This document shows, piece after piece, positions 17,818-59,006 of a DNA stretch of 64,000 nucleotides. Below the pieces are notes generated by a model. The model saw only the letters and a program-made list of their open reading frames with translations, made no database searches and was not told the DNA's origin. The DNA comes from a virus: the UHGV virus genome UHGV-2113617; one strand, written 5' to 3'. The position numbers were made by a program, and so were the translations under genes. Each line of letters starts with the position of its first letter. The first letter of the stretch is position 1.

Positions 17818-18339
17818 TTATCCTTTCATTGAAGGTGTAACAGTTGTTAAATACTTAATCATAGCTTCAGATTCTGATTTTGATAATGAAATTTCTTCAT
17901 TGTTTTGACGAATAGAAATAAAATCCGGATGACGGTCACGGCCAGCTTTCAAAACACACATATAAGTATCAGTTTCATCTTCAATATTTGAAATGATTGA
18001 AGCAGTTCCACATGAATGCGGTTTTTGATAAATCAATACGGCTTTTCTTCCACCGTTTGACTGTTCATAAACTTTTAACACATCAAACAAATCACTTCTT
18101 TTATCAATAGCTAAGATGTTGTTTTCATCTTCAATGTTAAATCCTTCGGATACTTCATAAAGTGTCACCCATAAATCGCCTATATCGATAGTAGCATTTA
18201 CTTTTCCATGACTTTCAAGAGCATGACAAATTTTCTTAATTTCGTCATAACTCATTTTAATATTATCATCTCCTTGAATAAGGAAGATGTCATTTTTAAA
18301 TTCAACACGAATTAAACCACTTTCACTTGAAATAAACAT
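17818..18339 (-). CDS. hypothetical protein, paralog of next gene
   Basis: 173 aa; shares GFNIE.E and C-terminal IRQ...YL..V.P.M with the 183-aa neighbour. Confidence 0.6.
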   Translation of the reverse strand: MFISSESGLIRVEFKNDIFLIQGDDNIKMSYDEIKKICHALESHGKVNATIDIGDLWVTLYEVSEGFNIEDENNILAIDKRSDLFDVLKVYEQSNGGRKAVLIYQKPHSCGTASIISNIEDETDTYMCVLKAGRDRHPDFISIRQNNEEISLSKSESEAMIKYLTTVTPSMKG

Positions 18340-18345
18340 ATTTCC

Positions 18346-18897
18346 TCACTTTGAAATCATAGTTGGAATGACAGAATCAAGATAAGTCTTTAATAAAACA
18401 GCTTCTTCTTTGTTTAATACAACAACATTAACATCATTTACCGATTGACGAATAGTTAAGACATCTCCCTCTTCATAGCATTTTGATACATTTAAAACAG
18501 TTTCATAATTTTGATTACAAGCGTTAGTAATAATAGCATTGCAATTTTTAAACCATTTTAAACCATGTTTTCTTTCATTAGAATAATAGAAATATTTAAT
18601 CTTAGCTATAAAATTATCCCAATTATTAATTGATAAGCATATTGACTCGCTTTCAATATTAAATCCTGGGCATAAAGAATAAAAATGAATTTTATGCTCA
18701 TCATTAATGCTTACAATTTTATCAGTGTATGGTTTTTCAATTTGGGTTAAATGAATAATTTCGCTAGGCGTAAAATATAGCATATCGTCTTCTTGCGTCA
18801 AACGATACATATTATTTACTTTTTCTATAGCCAATTCACCAAAAAGTGAACTAACTTCTAGTACTAATCGTTTCATATTAATCCTTTTTATTGGCAT
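18346..18897 (-). CDS. hypothetical protein, paralog of previous gene
   Basis: 183 aa. Confidence 0.6.
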   Translation of the reverse strand: MPIKRINMKRLVLEVSSLFGELAIEKVNNMYRLTQEDDMLYFTPSEIIHLTQIEKPYTDKIVSINDEHKIHFYSLCPGFNIESESICLSINNWDNFIAKIKYFYYSNERKHGLKWFKNCNAIITNACNQNYETVLNVSKCYEEGDVLTIRQSVNDVNVVVLNKEEAVLLKTYLDSVIPTMISK

Positions 18898-19156
18898 GAA
18901 TTTGTTCTAAAATTTTAGAGTATTCCTTTGTATCAGATTTACGTACAATCGATACACTATAAGGCATACTATCGGTGTCTTTTATAAAGCGTTCCAAATG
19001 ACACTCTAACAAAATTTCTGGGTTATAAATCGTGTACATCAAATTACCTGTTGCTCCACGATATTGACAGATTTCTACTGATTGAGCATCATTCCACAAT
19101 TTTGTTAAGACTAAATCGCCTACTTCTAATTTAGGAAAGCTCATGTTATTCACCAA
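18878..19156 (-). CDS. hypothetical protein
   Basis: 92-aa ORF. Confidence 0.45.
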   Translation of the reverse strand: MVNNMSFPKLEVGDLVLTKLWNDAQSVEICQYRGATGNLMYTIYNPEILLECHLERFIKDTDSMPYSVSIVRKSDTKEYSKILEQIHANKKD

Positions 19157-19331
19157 TTAAAGTTTCAATATAAGAATCAAGATTTACTTTAGCTTCTTCC
19201 ATAAGAGTTTTGTATTTAATCTTATTAGCATGTCCGGAGAAAGCTGATTCATCAATAACTGTTGATGCATGAACAGCTTTACTATACATCTCAATTAATT
19301 CTCTTAATTTAAAAGCCTGCTCACTTGTCAT
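19146..19331 (-). CDS. small helical protein, member of small-paralog set
   Basis: 61 aa, MTSEQAFKLRELIEMYSKAV. Confidence 0.5.
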   Translation of the reverse strand: MTSEQAFKLRELIEMYSKAVHASTVIDESAFSGHANKIKYKTLMEEAKVNLDSYIETLIGE

Positions 19332-19463
19332 TACATGCTCCTTTGAATAATATCAATAATGTTGTTCACCAGATTATAAGTAAACATTGGGTAATTATAT
19401 TGAATCATCACATACACAACAAACAAAACTTTCATTCTCTTCTCCTTGGCAGTTGGCAAGATT

Positions 19464-19493
19464 ACTATACCATAACCTTGCCAACTTGTAAAC
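19464..19493 (-). promoter_or_regulatory. T4-type early promoter
   Basis: GTTTAC, 18 bp, TATAGT. Confidence 0.55.
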
Positions 19494-19495
19494 CA

Positions 19496-19669
19496 TTAAA
19501 TGACGTTTTCAATAAAATTCTGGAGTTTTGTGTGAGCATCAACCATGATTTTCATTTCTTCCTTTGCAAAAGCTATGCCTCTTTCCCTAGAAGAACACTC
19601 ATAGTCAGAAACTGCATTAGCATATTCTTCAATTAGCTTCATTAAAAACATCTGCTTTTCAGTTTTCAT
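19496..19669 (-). CDS. small protein, member of small-paralog set (absent from ORF track, under 60 aa)
   Basis: 57 aa MKTEKQMFLMKLIEEYANAV...; ATG overlaps upstream gene end. Confidence 0.35.
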   Translation of the reverse strand: MKTEKQMFLMKLIEEYANAVSDYECSSRERGIAFAKEEMKIMVDAHTKLQNFIENVI

Positions 19670-19853
19670 TATTCCACCTAATCATTTCAAGATATTGAAC
19701 TAACTTAGCTTTAGATTTATCCAAATCTCTTTTAGCTGCTGCTATACCTTCGTATGAATATCCTTCACAATGCTCAACTGCTAATTGATATGAATCTATT
19801 TCAACATCACGTGCTAATTTAATGATTTTTTCAAACTGTTCGTGTGTCAGCAT
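19659..19853 (-). CDS. small protein, member of small-paralog set
   Basis: 64 aa MLTHEQFEKIIKLARDVE. Confidence 0.5.
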   Translation of the reverse strand: MLTHEQFEKIIKLARDVEIDSYQLAVEHCEGYSYEGIAAAKRDLDKSKAKLVQYLEMIRWNNEN

Positions 19854-19855
19854 AC

Positions 19856-20059
19856 TTAAACTCTCGTATTGTGATCGATAATTTCATCAAGAAACATATC
19901 TAAAGCTTCTACAGCATTATCAACTTTAGCTTCAAATTCTTCAATACCTTTATTTGCAATGCCTGCCGAAAACCAAGCAAAGTCACTAAGTTCCTCATCT
20001 GCTTTGCGAATTAAAGCTACCAATTCTTTAATTTTATCTGCTTGTTCAATACTAATCAT
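19856..20059 (-). CDS. small protein, member of small-paralog set
   Basis: 67 aa from [14 protein letters not shown]; TAATG overlap with upstream gene. Confidence 0.5.
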   Translation of the reverse strand: MISIEQADKIKELVALIRKADEELSDFAWFSAGIANKGIEEFEAKVDNAVEALDMFLDEIIDHNTRV

Positions 20060-20247
20060 TATTCCACCACATATGAAAGAGAGAATATTGCACACGCCAT
20101 ATGAGTTGCAGCTTCATCACACATATCATAACGTTTCTTAAGAAGTTCTTCAAGTTCTTCACTAGTAACATCATCCATGTTGACGAAAAAATCACCATTA
20201 ATGATGACGTAGATATTTCCTTCTTGATTAAGTGCTTCAATTTTCAT
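20059..20247 (-). CDS. hypothetical small acidic protein
   Basis: 62 aa from MKIEAL, GAGGAGAA RBS. Confidence 0.5.
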
Positions 20248-20275
20248 GATGTTCTCCTCTTTATCCGATAGTTGT

Positions 20276-20305
20276 ATAGTATCACAGCTCAAATGGAAAG
20301 TAAAC
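20276..20305 (-). promoter_or_regulatory. T4-type early promoter
   Basis: GTTTAC, 18 bp, TACTAT. Confidence 0.6.
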
Positions 20306-20321
20306 CGGTAAAATGAAAAAA

Positions 20322-20337
20322 GTCTCCCGAAGGAGAC
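20322..20337 (-). terminator. rho-independent terminator
   Basis: GTCTCC-TTCG-GGAGAC then TTTTTT on minus strand. Confidence 0.6.
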
Positions 20338-20342
20338 TAATG

Positions 20343-20729
20343 CTATTCGAGGGAAAGAAGATACTTACTTTGGTAAAACATTCCAGTAATATCATCTATC
20401 GTGCTTTGAATGGCTGGAGGCATTTCTTTGTAAATGCTGTTAGATTGGTCTAGTATACGATCAATCATTTTAATTGTGTCGGTAGGAAGTTTACTAGCAT
20501 CTGGAATTGAAGGTGTGTATTTTCTACCAGAATACCCCAAATATTGCTCACCAAATTTATCAATCAAATCTGGCAACTCAGAGAAAATAAAATCGTATGC
20601 TTTGTGTCTAGCATAACTTTTAGTTTCAAAATGCGCAGAATGAAAATAAGCTTGTGCAGCCATTAATAAACCTAAGTATTCATCTGCCTTTGAAGGTTTT
20701 CCACTTTGTGAAAAGTCGCTGAATTTCAT
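20343..20729 (-). CDS. hypothetical protein (T4 rI.-1 position)
   Basis: 128-aa ORF overlapping rI stop. Confidence 0.6.
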
Positions 20730-21019
20730 TCAGTCTCCAATTTAATGTTCATAATTCTAGCGTATGATTGTGCCATCTCCGCGCCTCGTTCTATACATTC
20801 AAAATCGGAAGAGCACGGGTCATTTTTATAGGTCGTTCGCATAAAACTATAGAACTGTTCAGATGATTCTACGCTTTTATTTTCAAAAAGCATATAAACA
20901 TGTCTAATACCAGATTCCATAAATTTATCAAAATGAGGATCGACATTCGCTTCAATTGGTGGAGATAAAGCAAACGCTAATCCTAGCATGGCAAATAATG
21001 CCGTTGCTTTTAAGGCCAT
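20726..21019 (-). CDS. rI: lysis-inhibition regulator rI
   Basis: 97 aa with N-terminal signal-anchor MALKATALFAMLGLAFALS; matches T4 rI as recalled. Confidence 0.8.
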   Translation of the reverse strand: MALKATALFAMLGLAFALSPPIEANVDPHFDKFMESGIRHVYMLFENKSVESSEQFYSFMRTTYKNDPCSSDFECIERGAEMAQSYARIMNIKLETE

Positions 21020-21031
21020 AAAGGCCTCCTA

Positions 21032-21244
21032 TCATTTTTGTCCTGTATTTACTTTATGCCGATGCACGGCCTTAACTTTATCAAGGCATTTTTCAAAATT
21101 TCGCAATCTAGTATAGTCTGCCGGAGATTGGTTGAGTGATACTTCTCGACGCAAAGCTGAAATGATATTTCCAACTTCCCTACGAATTTCATCTAATTGA
21201 AGAACAGTAAGATTGCGAAGTTGCTTTTCAGTTAATTGTAGCAT
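21032..21244 (-). CDS. hypothetical protein
   Basis: 70-aa ORF. Confidence 0.5.
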
Positions 21245-21286
21245 ATATACCCCTTTAGTTAGATAAACCTATTTATAACTTTTGCA

Positions 21287-21868
21287 CTAACCGAGCTTTT
21301 TAGTTAATTCATTCCAATGTTTTCTACACAAAGAAACATAAATTTCATCACCAATACAGATTTGATTACCTTCTTTAACTGGCGTTCCATCTTCCATTAA
21401 TCGAGCTGTCATAATCGCTTTTTTACCGCAATGACAAACTGCCTTTAGTTCAATAAGTTTATCTGCAATCGCCAAAAGTTCTTTAGAACCTTCAAATAAT
21501 TTTCCAGCGAAATCAGTCCTTAGACCATAAGCCATAACAGGAACATTATATGCATCGACAATTCGGCTTAATTGATGTACCTGTTCAGTTTTTAAAAACT
21601 GAGCTTCATCTACAAATACGCAATGAATATCTTTTTGTGCTTCAGCCCATTTATAGAACTCAAAAATATCCATATCATCCGTAATAATATTCGCTTCCTG
21701 CTTAATTCCAATGCGAGAAACGACTTCACAGACAGAATCGCGAGTATCAATAGCAGGCTTAAGAACTAATACACTCATTCCACGTTCTTTATAATTATGC
21801 GCAGCAGTCAAAAGAGAAGCAGATTTTCCAGCATTCATTGCTGCATAAGTAAAAATTAAACTCGCCAT
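21287..21868 (-). CDS. tk: thymidine kinase
   Basis: 193 aa, P-loop AAMNAGKS, C-terminal CxxC pairs. Confidence 0.9.
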   Translation of the reverse strand: MASLIFTYAAMNAGKSASLLTAAHNYKERGMSVLVLKPAIDTRDSVCEVVSRIGIKQEANIITDDMDIFEFYKWAEAQKDIHCVFVDEAQFLKTEQVHQLSRIVDAYNVPVMAYGLRTDFAGKLFEGSKELLAIADKLIELKAVCHCGKKAIMTARLMEDGTPVKEGNQICIGDEIYVSLCRKHWNELTKKLG

Positions 21869-21877
21869 ATCACCTTC

Positions 21878-22063
21878 TTAAAGCGTATTCACATAAGCTA
21901 TTAATTCGTTTTCTTTCTTATCAAACCGATCAGCAAATTCTTCCTGGTGTTCGGGAGATAGCGGGCCGTATTCATCATAAAAGGTGTTTGCTTCTGTATG
22001 CTCATCTAGAAGTTCATGGATAAGCTCAAACAATTTATCTTTTTGTTCTTTACTCAGACTCAT
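21878..22063 (-). CDS. hypothetical small protein
   Basis: 61-aa ORF. Confidence 0.5.
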   Translation of the reverse strand: MSLSKEQKDKLFELIHELLDEHTEANTFYDEYGPLSPEHQEEFADRFDKKENELIAYVNTL

Positions 22064-22233
22064 ATATTAATTTCCAGAAGTTTTAAAATAATTCGCTTTT
22101 GCTTAAATATTTCCATAGTTAAATGATCAGTATCTTTTTGACCAATTCCAATGGCAAAACCTTTATTAACAGCGAGTTCAATTAAATTATCAAGTTCACG
22201 TAACACTTCATATTGTAACTCAAAACTATTCAT
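22060..22233 (-). CDS. hypothetical small protein (absent from ORF track)
   Basis: 57-aa ORF MNSFELQYEVLRELDNL..., start/stop coupled to neighbours. Confidence 0.35.
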   Translation of the reverse strand: MNSFELQYEVLRELDNLIELAVNKGFAIGIGQKDTDHLTMEIFKQKRIILKLLEINI

Positions 22234-22442
22234 TTTGGTTTACCTTCTTTAACGAAATCAGGATAAGGATAAAATCCTGAATAAAATCCTTCGCCTTTAT
22301 GATTGATGCATCCTTTATTAGAGCAATAGCACCAATAATCGAAATCACAAGCCATTTCATCATTGCATAAAGCAAAAACAACTGGCCATTTACACTTTTC
22401 ACAATGTGCATTTTTAAGAATGCTAGTTTGGCTCATAACCAT
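22230..22442 (-). CDS. cysteine-rich small protein (putative zinc binding)
   Basis: about 70 aa with HCEKCKW...CNDEMACDFDYWCYCSNKGC. Confidence 0.45.
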   Translation of the reverse strand: MVMSQTSILKNAHCEKCKWPVVFALCNDEMACDFDYWCYCSNKGCINHKGEGFYSGFYPYPDFVKEGKPK

Positions 22443-22645
22443 GTAACCTTTAAGCAATATTCTTCTACATGCTGTTTACGACCTTTCTTATCAATAAAGG
22501 TATATTCAACGAATGTTCCAATATAGTCTTTATCTACATCATGTGGACTATTAATTGGGCATTTAGTACGGCAAATGCGTTCCCATTGACGAATAATTTC
22601 CACTTTGTTTTTAGGATCAAACGGATGCGGGTAATGTGCTTTCAT
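22433..22645 (-). CDS. hypothetical protein
   Basis: 70-aa ORF. Confidence 0.45.
   Translation of the reverse strand: MKAHYPHPFDPKNKVEIIRQWERICRTKCPINSPHDVDKDYIGTFVEYTFIDKKGRKQHVEEYCLKVTWL

Positions 22646-55865: not shown

Positions 55866-59006
<3,141 letters not shown>

Follow-up and report, generated by a model that had tools for sequence, protein, structure and literature searches.

What are the small, related genes that follow one another in the early region of a T-even phage, and what might their products do? Although no virulent phage has been studied better than T4, many of its small early genes lack an assigned function, and the five genes treated here are among them. We addressed this question in a 64,000-nt stretch of viral DNA (UHGV-2113617; hereafter, the window). 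An earlier note on its letters had described a chain of translationally coupled small helical paralogs, followed by an acidic protein, and had suggested that such phage proteins are frequently inhibitors of host proteins.

By its sequence, the window belongs to a T6-like Tequatrovirus. The region is 96–99.5% identical to T6-like phages, and the paralog stretch is the mobD.5-to-mobD.2 part of the variable early region, nrdC to tk, in this T6-like T-even phage. We mapped the window gene by gene onto T6, T4, and 13 viral contigs and found the gene order of T4 and T6 (tk.x, tk, rI.1, rI, rI.-1, mobD.5, mobD.4, mobD.3, mobD.2a, mobD.2), with every gene of the paralog region carried by the minus strand (Table 1). 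The four small ORFs with related sequences were confirmed on this strand, encoding 61, 57, 64, and 67 aa. Apart from the tk-adjacent gene, the members of this family (Pfam DUF7438) were 92–98% identical to their T6 orthologues and 81–92% identical to those of T4. The arrangement is of the T6 type, with an intact mobD.2a and an extra 61-aa member plus a Tudor gene, and one DUF7438 copy rather than two adjoins tk. No difference of substance separated the window members from the catalogued DUF7438/T4 genes (mobD.2a, mobD.3, mobD.4, tk.1, and tk.2; RB69 tk.2). As judged from these comparisons, the four small related genes are already catalogued as T-even early genes of the mobD.2a/mobD.3/mobD.4 type. 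In several loci, a y05I-like gene was observed directly downstream of a DUF7438 copy.

Table 1. Genes and elements of the paralog region and its surroundings in the window, listed in the direction of minus-strand transcription.
Feature	Position	Strand	Basis
Fifth DUF7438 member, 61 aa, net charge ~-10	21878..22063	-	Pfam E 5.6e-19; top family-HMM match
Intrinsic-terminator-like hairpin, UUCG loop then T run	20321..20338	-	Terminator scan and sequence
T4-type early-promoter-like site, GTTTAC-18 nt-TGaTACTAT, upstream of mobD.5	20276..20305	-	Read from sequence
mobD.5, 62 aa, acidic	20059..20247	-	phrog_3024; no Pfam match
mobD.4 orthologue, 67 aa, DUF7438	19856..20059	-	Pfam, T4/T6 comparison
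mobD.3 orthologue, 64 aa, DUF7438	19659..19853	-	Pfam, T4/T6 comparison
mobD.2a orthologue, 57 aa, DUF7438	19496..19669	-	Pfam, T4/T6 comparison
Internal early-promoter match, TTTACA-17 nt-TGgTATAGT	19464..19492	-	Promoter scan, 10/12 matches plus TG extension
15-bp RNA hairpin in the mobD.2a/61-aa spacer	19451..19486	-	Region fold z-score -3.0
mobD.2, 34 aa, hydrophobic	19331..19435	-	Shine-Dalgarno AAGGAG; T4 counterpart
61-aa DUF7438 member, phrog_4859	19146..19331	-	Pfam; present in T6, absent from T4
Phage Tudor-domain protein, 88 aa	18878..19144	-	Pfam PF24144 E 3.5e-40

The relatedness of the small genes held up under alignment statistics. All four matched DUF7438 (PF24219, a 57-position model with a 25-bit gathering score) end to end, with E values of 7e-14 to 9e-17. 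A fifth full-length match, located outside the stretch considered earlier, is a gene with 54–56% identity to T4/T6 tk.2, immediately upstream of tk; the five together scored 52–69 bits (E = 7e-14 to 6e-19). The four paralogs cross-matched one another's PHROG families at E values of 8e-6 to 1.6e-3 (the PHROGs linked to DUF7438 genes are 653, 2758, and 4859). Profile–profile comparison of the subfamilies yielded P values of 3e-6 to 5e-3 for 7 of the 10 pairs, with most alignments spanning the full length, against a best value of 0.026 among 20 reversed-sequence controls. Among all 1196 ORFs of the window in six frames, the family HMM recovered exactly five members, and the next best ORF had an E value of 0.69. 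Pairwise identity among the paralogs is only 20–32%, and single-subfamily HMMs cross-match weakly (E from 0.01 to about 2); the support for relatedness therefore comes from the profiles and not from pairwise comparison. Two other small helical ORFs, rI.1 and a 57-aa frame at 22060–22233, were tested as well and are not members.

The family is very small, since an exhaustive profile search among 1.84 billion representatives returned only 26 clusters at 50% identity. All DUF7438 copies found in T4 and T6 sit between tk.2 and mobD.2. Scanning T4 at 1–39 kb and 138–169 kb revealed no further members, and the window's own scan covers, by a rough estimate, the counterpart of about 38–102 kb of T4. 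Distant relatives stand alone, in one copy and with the neighboring genes missing.

The acidic 62-aa protein exists as an ORF (pI 4.2), but instead of following the paralogs, as had been stated, it precedes them in transcription: mobD.5 is the first gene of its transcription unit, not the last. The terminator-like hairpin at 20321–20338 closes the upstream rI.-1 unit. The mobD.5 promoter has been mapped in T4 by primer extension (PMC1702504); the corresponding site in the window scores below the promoter-scan threshold, so we infer this promoter assignment. As a candidate DUF7438 member, mobD.5 was rejected: it has no Pfam match and a PHROG family of its own, it was missed by the family HMM, and its predicted fold is different, consisting of three beta strands followed by two helices (AlphaFold2, pLDDT 87). 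No fold neighbor with E < 0.3 was found for it in the PDB, and its relatives amounted to only 10 protein clusters.

The linkage of the genes through TAATG/ATGA-type overlaps stood in part. From mobD.5 to mobD.2a, the three junctions are tight. The mobD.5 stop and the mobD.4 start overlap in TAATG, mobD.4 and mobD.3 are separated by a 2-nt spacer without overlap (TAAGTATG), and mobD.3 and mobD.2a overlap by 11 nt (ATGAAAACTGA). The mobD.4 start is an ATG behind a Shine-Dalgarno-like GGTGGA. No such link joins mobD.2a to the 61-aa gene: 164 nt separate the two, occupied by the early-promoter match, the hairpin, and mobD.2. A TAATG shared by mobD.2 and the 61-aa gene contains the stop of the former and the start of the latter; the Tudor gene then starts 1 nt past the stop of the 61-aa gene. 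Stop/start contact was thus not continuous at every junction, and the description as a translationally coupled chain was overstated, because a promoter-bearing spacer with another gene breaks the chain. In a crude gene call of this genome, 44 of 96 same-strand neighbors overlapped or were ≤5 nt apart. Tight junctions are the norm here, so they do not set the DUF7438 genes apart; the overlaps probably reflect general T-even gene packing rather than a family-specific device.

Inspection of the spacer showed that the hairpin overlaps the -10 element of the internal promoter. Covariation among relatives was seen at one of its pairs, 19481–19456, which is G-C in the window, G-U in five loci, and A-U in T4. 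An Rfam search over 17–23 kb found nothing. T4 annotates a mobD.2 of equal length (105 nt), and the gene is 91–100% identical in six loci, with a pN/pS of 0.21; it was absent from the earlier note. In the transcription scheme, which is in large part established, two sigma-70-type early promoters, one upstream of mobD.5 and a second upstream of mobD.2, transcribe the genes right after infection within polycistronic mRNAs.

Assignment to a phage early region is borne out by T4, whose orthologues are classed as early RNA; LC-MS placed MobD.3 and MobD.4 among the early proteins and Tk.1 and Tk.2 among the middle proteins (PMC9697503 supplements). Expression is known from these T4 orthologues, and their detection as proteins answers the concern that the frames might not be expressed at all. 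The window itself shows promoter-like sites and Shine-Dalgarno sequences. The pN/pS values were 0.11–0.40 in the four DUF7438 members with enough data and 0.21 in tk; the value of 0.75 for the 61-aa gene is uninformative, since it is based on only two distinct sequences with four differences. The DUF7438 orthologues are under purifying selection.

These data also bear on whether the small genes are functional. They might be chance frames or decaying remnants in a spacer, as could be suggested by the copies that are frameshifted or truncated in some phages (mobD.2a is frameshifted in laboratory T4 and intact in the window) and by the partial deletability of the region. Yet the genes are under purifying selection, their Shine-Dalgarno sequences lie at the correct distance, their lengths are conserved across loci, and four T4 members were seen by LC-MS. 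This reading is already contradicted, and we regard it as highly improbable.

The set of copies is nevertheless changeable. A viable T4 deletion spans nrdC.11 to mobD.3, and at least part of the region is therefore deletable in T4. The DUF7438 copy number ranges from 2 to 6 among relatives and shifts by duplication, insertion/deletion, and frameshift. According to their presence and absence across loci, the 61-aa gene and the Tudor gene are gained or lost jointly, as one insertion/deletion module.

The proteins had been described as small and helical, and AlphaFold2 agreed, predicting a two-helix hairpin (pLDDT 78); for mobD.4, the predicted helices span residues 4–31 and 37–66. Each DUF7438 member is predicted to be a single antiparallel two-helix hairpin, acidic, and about 60 aa long. 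The open end of the hairpin is the most conserved part across the family. It is built from the N-terminal S/T-x-E-Q-x-x-K-L-x-E-L-I and the C-terminal L-x-x-Y/F-I/L-x-x-L motifs. Foldseek searches of the PDB and of viral models gave no significant match (all E values were at least 0.05). The best neighbors were generic dimerizing hairpins, namely Aqs1, CnrXs, and the DHp domains of histidine kinases, and the viral neighbors were uncharacterized proteins, with the top ones coming from T4-like phages. Function cannot be read from a helical hairpin, which is too generic a fold.

Public records do assign functions. The 61-aa protein is labeled 'helicase loader' or 'kilA', and mobD.4 is labeled a molybdopterin-guanine dinucleotide biosynthesis protein. 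If these labels were correct, the 61-aa protein would be a helicase loader or a KilA-type anti-repressor, and mobD.4 would be a biosynthetic enzyme, but the record labels and the phrog_4859 description are all that speaks for it. The helicase loader label was rejected, as BLASTP did not connect the protein with the T4 helicase loader gp59 (E = 0.89) and the PDB sequence profile search returned nothing relevant. In that search, the DUF7438 members had no significant match to solved structures (best E = 0.01, a TetR-family regulator). NCBIfam gave no match either, and the proteins consist of 57–67 aa in two helices. In T4, 'MobD' denotes a homing endonuclease locus; a clash of gene names thus accounts for the molybdopterin label. 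The 'helicase loader' and 'molybdopterin MobD' labels are annotation errors, and we give the annotated functions practically no credence. Several such wrong labels are spreading through phage annotations.

What, then, could the hairpins do? Our literature search found no functional study of any member with respect to binding partner, oligomeric state, phenotype, or target. The explanation that we consider best, with about even confidence, is a dispensable early hairpin family likely to bind a host or host-defense protein. Through the conserved open end, a packing surface common to the family, two hairpins would probably join into a four-helix bundle, and the resulting small acidic dimer would bind and modulate its host or host-defense target stoichiometrically. 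The loop-proximal half varies between paralogs and therefore probably sets target specificity. Constraint falls on the helix ends (omega ~0.12) in mobD.4 and the tk-adjacent gene, whose centers are relaxed (omega ~0.45). In mobD.3 the pattern is reversed and it is the loop that is conserved (CEGYSYxGI), so the proposed role of the loop in specificity would not apply evenly to all members. A search for positive selection on the loop was negative: no site class had omega > 1 (maximum, 0.46). This gives no positive sign of an arms race, and the variable center may be merely unconstrained.

The suggestion that the proteins inhibit host proteins is a plausible guess, with one hint behind it in the form of a non-significant fold resemblance to Aqs1. 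A bolder version, which we hold only tentatively, is that the hairpins are duplication-expanded dimeric inhibitors, each paralog directed against a different host or host-defense protein, with copy gain and loss tracking host range. In a variant of this proposal, the paralogs may mix into heteromeric four-helix bundles and thereby provide a combinatorial set of binders.

The same evidence can be read in terms of dedicated counter-defense, with each paralog neutralizing a different bacterial immune system and the most acidic members possibly serving as DNA mimics. Early expression of the T4 orthologues, dispensability of the region in a laboratory host, and copy numbers that differ between phages are consistent with it, as are the variable central segments with their insertions and deletions and the high acidity of mobD.4 and the tk-adjacent gene (net charge ~-9 to -10 over 61–67 aa). 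In addition, the top PDB neighbor is a phage-encoded inhibitor. Nevertheless, omega nowhere exceeds 1, three members have a net charge of only -2 to -3, and the defense-related models of PADLOC gave no match. The literature searched names none of these genes in trigger or escape data. Dedicated counter-defense restricts the best explanation to a special case, and we consider it unlikely.

A role inside the phage can also be considered. The hairpins would then serve neighboring phage proteins (the putative y05I-like transcription factors or the Tudor protein) as adaptors or regulators, or would form mixed bundles with one another, with coupled translation providing matched amounts; the conserved open end might just as well mediate contacts among paralogs. 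The position of a DUF7438 copy directly upstream of a y05I-like gene in several loci, the invariable gain and loss of the 61-aa member with the Tudor gene, and the close juxtaposition of the genes point in this direction. Against this, tight junctions are generic in the genome, tk, rI.1, rI, and rI.-1 lie between the fifth member and the others, and the distant relatives are single-copy genes lacking the neighbors. Free variation in composition and in copies (2 to 6) also fits an obligate mixed complex poorly. We therefore consider a role inside the phage improbable, and retain binding of a host or host-defense protein as the preferred reading.

The corrected locus map adds a fifth member beside tk, the 34-aa mobD.2, another promoter that is internal to the unit, and a hairpin that is conserved. 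The DUF7438 proteins are real, expressed, and conserved, their fold is simple and their conserved surface defined, which makes them cheap candidates for defense-system deletion and expression screens. Should they prove to be inhibitors, a small scaffold would be added to the known phage countermeasures; otherwise, the locus is ordinary for a T-even genome.

Among known systems, Aqs1 of Pseudomonas phage DMS3 (PDB 6v7u) is the best PDB fold neighbor (TM-score 0.61/0.70; 23% identity; Foldseek E = 0.48, not significant). It is likewise a small phage-encoded helical hairpin of about the same size, it is dimeric in solution (PMC13436744), and its targets are known, as it inhibits host PilB and LasR. 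The PDB profile search gave no sequence match to Aqs1, and the similarity was not significant. Unlike the multicopy T-even set, Aqs1 is a single-copy protein of a temperate Pseudomonas phage. The likeness concerns shape alone and does not amount to membership. The DHp and CnrX modules (TM-score 0.6–0.78 normalized to the query, none significant) share with the DUF7438 members two antiparallel helices with heptad-spaced hydrophobics, and they pair into four-helix bundles. These modules are domains of larger proteins, and their catalytic or metal-binding residues are absent in the DUF7438 members.

AsiA, Arn, Dmd, and Stp are short T4 early host modifiers with known targets, and each carries an annotated host- or RNA-directed role. 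The DUF7438 hairpins would, through the proposed modulation of a host protein, parallel other small phage early proteins.

The small-ORF cluster at 19146-20247 belongs to the mobD/tk early region of a T-even phage. More than 200 T-even genomes, including T6, matched 19000-20400 over its full length at 96-99.5% identity, and about 500 records matched it at 90% identity or more. T4 covered only the first 83-84% of the cluster. The gene order was established by mapping against the T6 and T4 records and 13 viral contigs; all genes of the region lie on the minus strand.

Features of the mobD/tk early region, in the direction of transcription
Feature	Position	Strand	Description
tk.2-like (tk-adjacent) gene	21878-22063	-	61 aa
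tk	21287-21868	-	
rI.1	21032-21244	-	
rI	20726-21019	-	
rI.-1	20343-20729	-	
mobD.5	20059-20247	-	62 aa
mobD.4	19856-20059	-	67 aa
mobD.3	19659-19853	-	64 aa
mobD.2a	19496-19669	-	57 aa
15-bp hairpin	19451-19486	-	mobD.2a-mobD.2 spacer; overlaps the -10 of an internal early promoter
mobD.2	19331-19435	-	34 aa
61-aa gene	19146-19331	-	not in T4
Tudor-domain gene	18878-19144	-	88 aa
y05I-like gene	18346-18897	-	183 aa
y05I-like gene	17818-18339	-	173 aa

The four small ORFs and their N-terminal sequences were precisely as the earlier note had described them, and their proposed relatedness was borne out at the profile level, not pairwise. Pairwise identities were only 20-32%, and HMMs built from single orthologue groups gave weak cross-hits (E 0.01 to ~2, against 1196 ORFs). 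All four ORFs matched Pfam DUF7438 (PF24219) end to end, above the gathering score (E 7e-14 to 9e-17), and the paralogs cross-hit one another's PHROG families. Local profile-profile comparison of five orthologue groups related seven of ten pairs with P values of 3e-6 to 5e-3, mostly over 57-63 columns; the best of 20 reversed-sequence control comparisons reached P 0.026. When the family HMM was run over every six-frame ORF in the 64-kb window, exactly five members emerged (next match E 0.69), the fifth being the tk-adjacent gene, which had been left out. The paralogs are thus members of a curated Pfam DUF by which NCBI already names proteins, and their genes already carry names in the T4 and T6 records. 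No published function for DUF7438 members was found in the searchable literature. The initial observation therefore correctly recognised an established family without a known function; it is low on surprise and needs four corrections, which concern the strand order, the interruption of the chain, the overlooked mobD.2 and the fifth member. Its value is modest, namely a short candidate list for experiments.

The 62-aa acidic protein said to follow the paralogs does exist as an ORF (mobD.5), but it opens its transcription unit and so precedes them. PHROG, Pfam and the family HMM all placed it outside DUF7438. Its confident AlphaFold2 model (pLDDT 87) had three beta strands and, after them, two helices, with no PDB neighbour at E <0.3, and a protein search returned only 10 clusters.

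The claim that overlaps link the ORFs into a chain held in part. The mobD.5/mobD.4 (TAATG, 1 nt) and mobD.3/mobD.2a (ATGAAAACTGA, 11 nt) junctions overlap, whereas a 2-nt spacer separates mobD.4 from mobD.3 (TAAGTATG) and the chain is broken before the 61-aa gene. The 164-nt interval from mobD.2a to the 61-aa gene holds a promoter match, a hairpin and mobD.2; therefore, the genes form two transcription units, not one chain. The promoter scan returned a strong early-promoter match (TTTACA-17-TGgTATAGT). The hydrophobic mobD.2 ORF is preceded by the Shine-Dalgarno sequence AAGGAG, equals the annotated T4 mobD.2 in length and is 91-100% conserved across six loci. It overlaps the 61-aa gene by 1 nt (TAATG), which is followed by the Tudor gene after a 1-nt spacer (TAACATG). 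In the window, mobD.5 is preceded by a promoter-like site and, farther upstream, by an intrinsic terminator; the T4 mobD.5 promoter has been mapped via primer extension (PMC1702504). One pair of the spacer hairpin, 19481-19456, covaries: where the window has G-C, T6 and four viral contigs have G-U and T4 has A-U. The intermediate state, G-U, can pair only in sense-strand RNA. Possible roles of the hairpin are stabilising a 3' end, marking a processing site or serving as an attenuator.

Tight junctions are not particular to the mobD locus: a crude gene call of the window gave 96 pairs of same-strand neighbours, of which 44 overlapped or lay ≤5 nt apart. Dense overlapping small ORFs carry on upstream of the tk-adjacent gene (22060-22645: a 57-aa ORF without family, a zinc-binding domain protein, PF23895, and a DUF7202 protein), so the chain pattern is regional rather than paralog-specific. 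Beyond this run, a 159-aa ORF stands where T4 has tk.4, whose T4 annotation lists an A1pp phosphatase motif. An identical minus-strand 12-mer, GGTGGAATAATG, comprising Shine-Dalgarno, stop and start, occurs at the mobD.5/mobD.4 (20057-20068) and mobD.3/mobD.2a (19667-19678) junctions. Short repeats of this kind could promote unequal recombination and copy-number change.

DUF7438 copy number turns over among relatives, with six copies in T6, five in the window, five in T4 (one frameshifted) and two or three in Mosigvirus-type loci. Scanning T4 early regions elsewhere, at 1-39 kb and 138-169 kb, turned up no member. The 61-aa and Tudor genes (18878-19331) form one clean insertion/deletion module, gained or lost jointly between mobD.2 and a y05I-like gene; the window, T6 and the viral locus L012 have it, and T4, L003, L004 and L013 lack it. 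The TAATG at the mobD.2 end is retained without the module in T4 and L013, while L003 and L004 have TAATTGTG. Next to tk, the window carries one DUF7438 gene, which shares 54-56% identity with T4/T6 tk.2, where T4, T6 and L013 carry two: tk.2 and tk.1, of which tk.1 is the more divergent (family HMM E 2e-6 to 3e-5). This difference looks like replacement or an allele class, not simple drift. A short way downstream of the cluster, the y05I-like genes are tandem paralogs, a further local duplication; both match the N- and C-terminal domains (PF24449 and PF24448) of the T4 y05I-like 'putative transcription factor'.

The named members, RB69 tk.2 among them, belong to Tequatrovirus and Mosigvirus phages. 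When 1.84 billion cluster representatives were searched exhaustively with a profile, only 26 clusters were returned at E<=0.001. Rare single-copy relatives occur outside the T-even phages (L018, 4001-4213; L019, 4001-4195). One is on a 60% GC contig with an integrase, an N6/N4 methyltransferase and a dCMP deaminase, the other amid a dense small-ORF array on a 142-kb contig of 43% GC.

The paralogs are under purifying selection, with pN/pS across loci of 0.11 (mobD.2a), 0.29 (mobD.4), 0.33 (mobD.3) and 0.40 (tk-adjacent gene), while the comparison genes tk and rI.-1 stood at 0.21 and 0.29; differences in the 61-aa gene were too few for an informative ratio. Placement in the phage early region was confirmed by a T4 time course, in which the orthologues were classed as early RNA and LC-MS intensities of MobD.3 (P39238), MobD.4 (P39237), Tk.1 (P13306) and Tk.2 (P13307) climbed from the first infection minutes (PMC9697503 and supplements). 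For T4 mobD.5, mobD.2 and mobD.2a, RNA but no protein was recorded (PMC9697503). The LC-MS detection and pN/pS values led us to reject non-functional ORFs. A viable T4 lacking nrdC.11 to mobD.3 was recovered in a genome-reduction study (PMC9825161). In laboratory T4 (58049-58165 and downstream), mobD.2a is frameshifted into a 38-aa ORF and a remnant still recognised by the family HMM; the gene is intact, at 57 aa, in the window, T6 and four contigs. Taken together, these genes are expressed, conserved and dispensable in the laboratory.

Several misleading product names are spreading in public records that match 18878-22233. The 61-aa gene appears as 'helicase loader' or 'kilA'; the former, the only public label put to a test, was rejected. 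The mobD.4 name 'molybdopterin-guanine dinucleotide biosynthesis protein MobD' was also rejected and traced to a gene-name clash. The Tudor gene is called 'virion structural protein', rI.-1 'starvation-inducible transcriptional regulator', and the T6 counterpart of the 57-aa ORF at 22060-22233 'rI antiholin'.

The small helical character proposed for the paralogs agreed with an AlphaFold2 model of mobD.4 (24-sequence family alignment; mean pLDDT 78), which predicted a hairpin: two long helices, at residues 4-31 and 37-66, with a short loop between them. In the sequences, hydrophobic residues recur every 3-4 residues in both helices. The columns conserved family-wide are E5 and L13 at the N-terminus and L53 near the C-terminus, which the hairpin geometry would bring together at its open end. 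In mobD.4 and the tk-adjacent gene, variation, including insertions/deletions, is mostly central (omega ~0.45 versus ~0.12 at the ends). The pattern is reversed in mobD.3, which keeps its loop motif CEGYSYxGI even in Mosigvirus-type relatives. No region with omega >1 was found within orthologue groups.

We propose that the hairpins pair via the conserved open end into four-helix bundles and may bind host or host-defence proteins stoichiometrically, the target being determined by the centre, which is specific to each paralog. The acidic composition and the accessory, variable nature of the genes point this way, as does analogy with small phage early proteins. Less likely readings are a strictly counter-defence role, or a role within the phage, with the neighbouring Tudor or y05I-like proteins or as mixed bundles. 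A PDB sequence profile search, NCBIfam and PADLOC gave nothing useful, and Foldseek gave no significant neighbour among PDB or viral models. The best viral matches were uncharacterised proteins, with T4-like phages supplying the top ones; the best PDB matches, likewise not significant, were CnrX sensor domains, histidine-kinase DHp hairpins and Aqs1 (E 0.48). For the proposed bundle-forming binders, the example among known phage proteins would be Aqs1, the small helical-hairpin inhibitor from Pseudomonas phage DMS3, which is a dimer in solution (PMC13436744).
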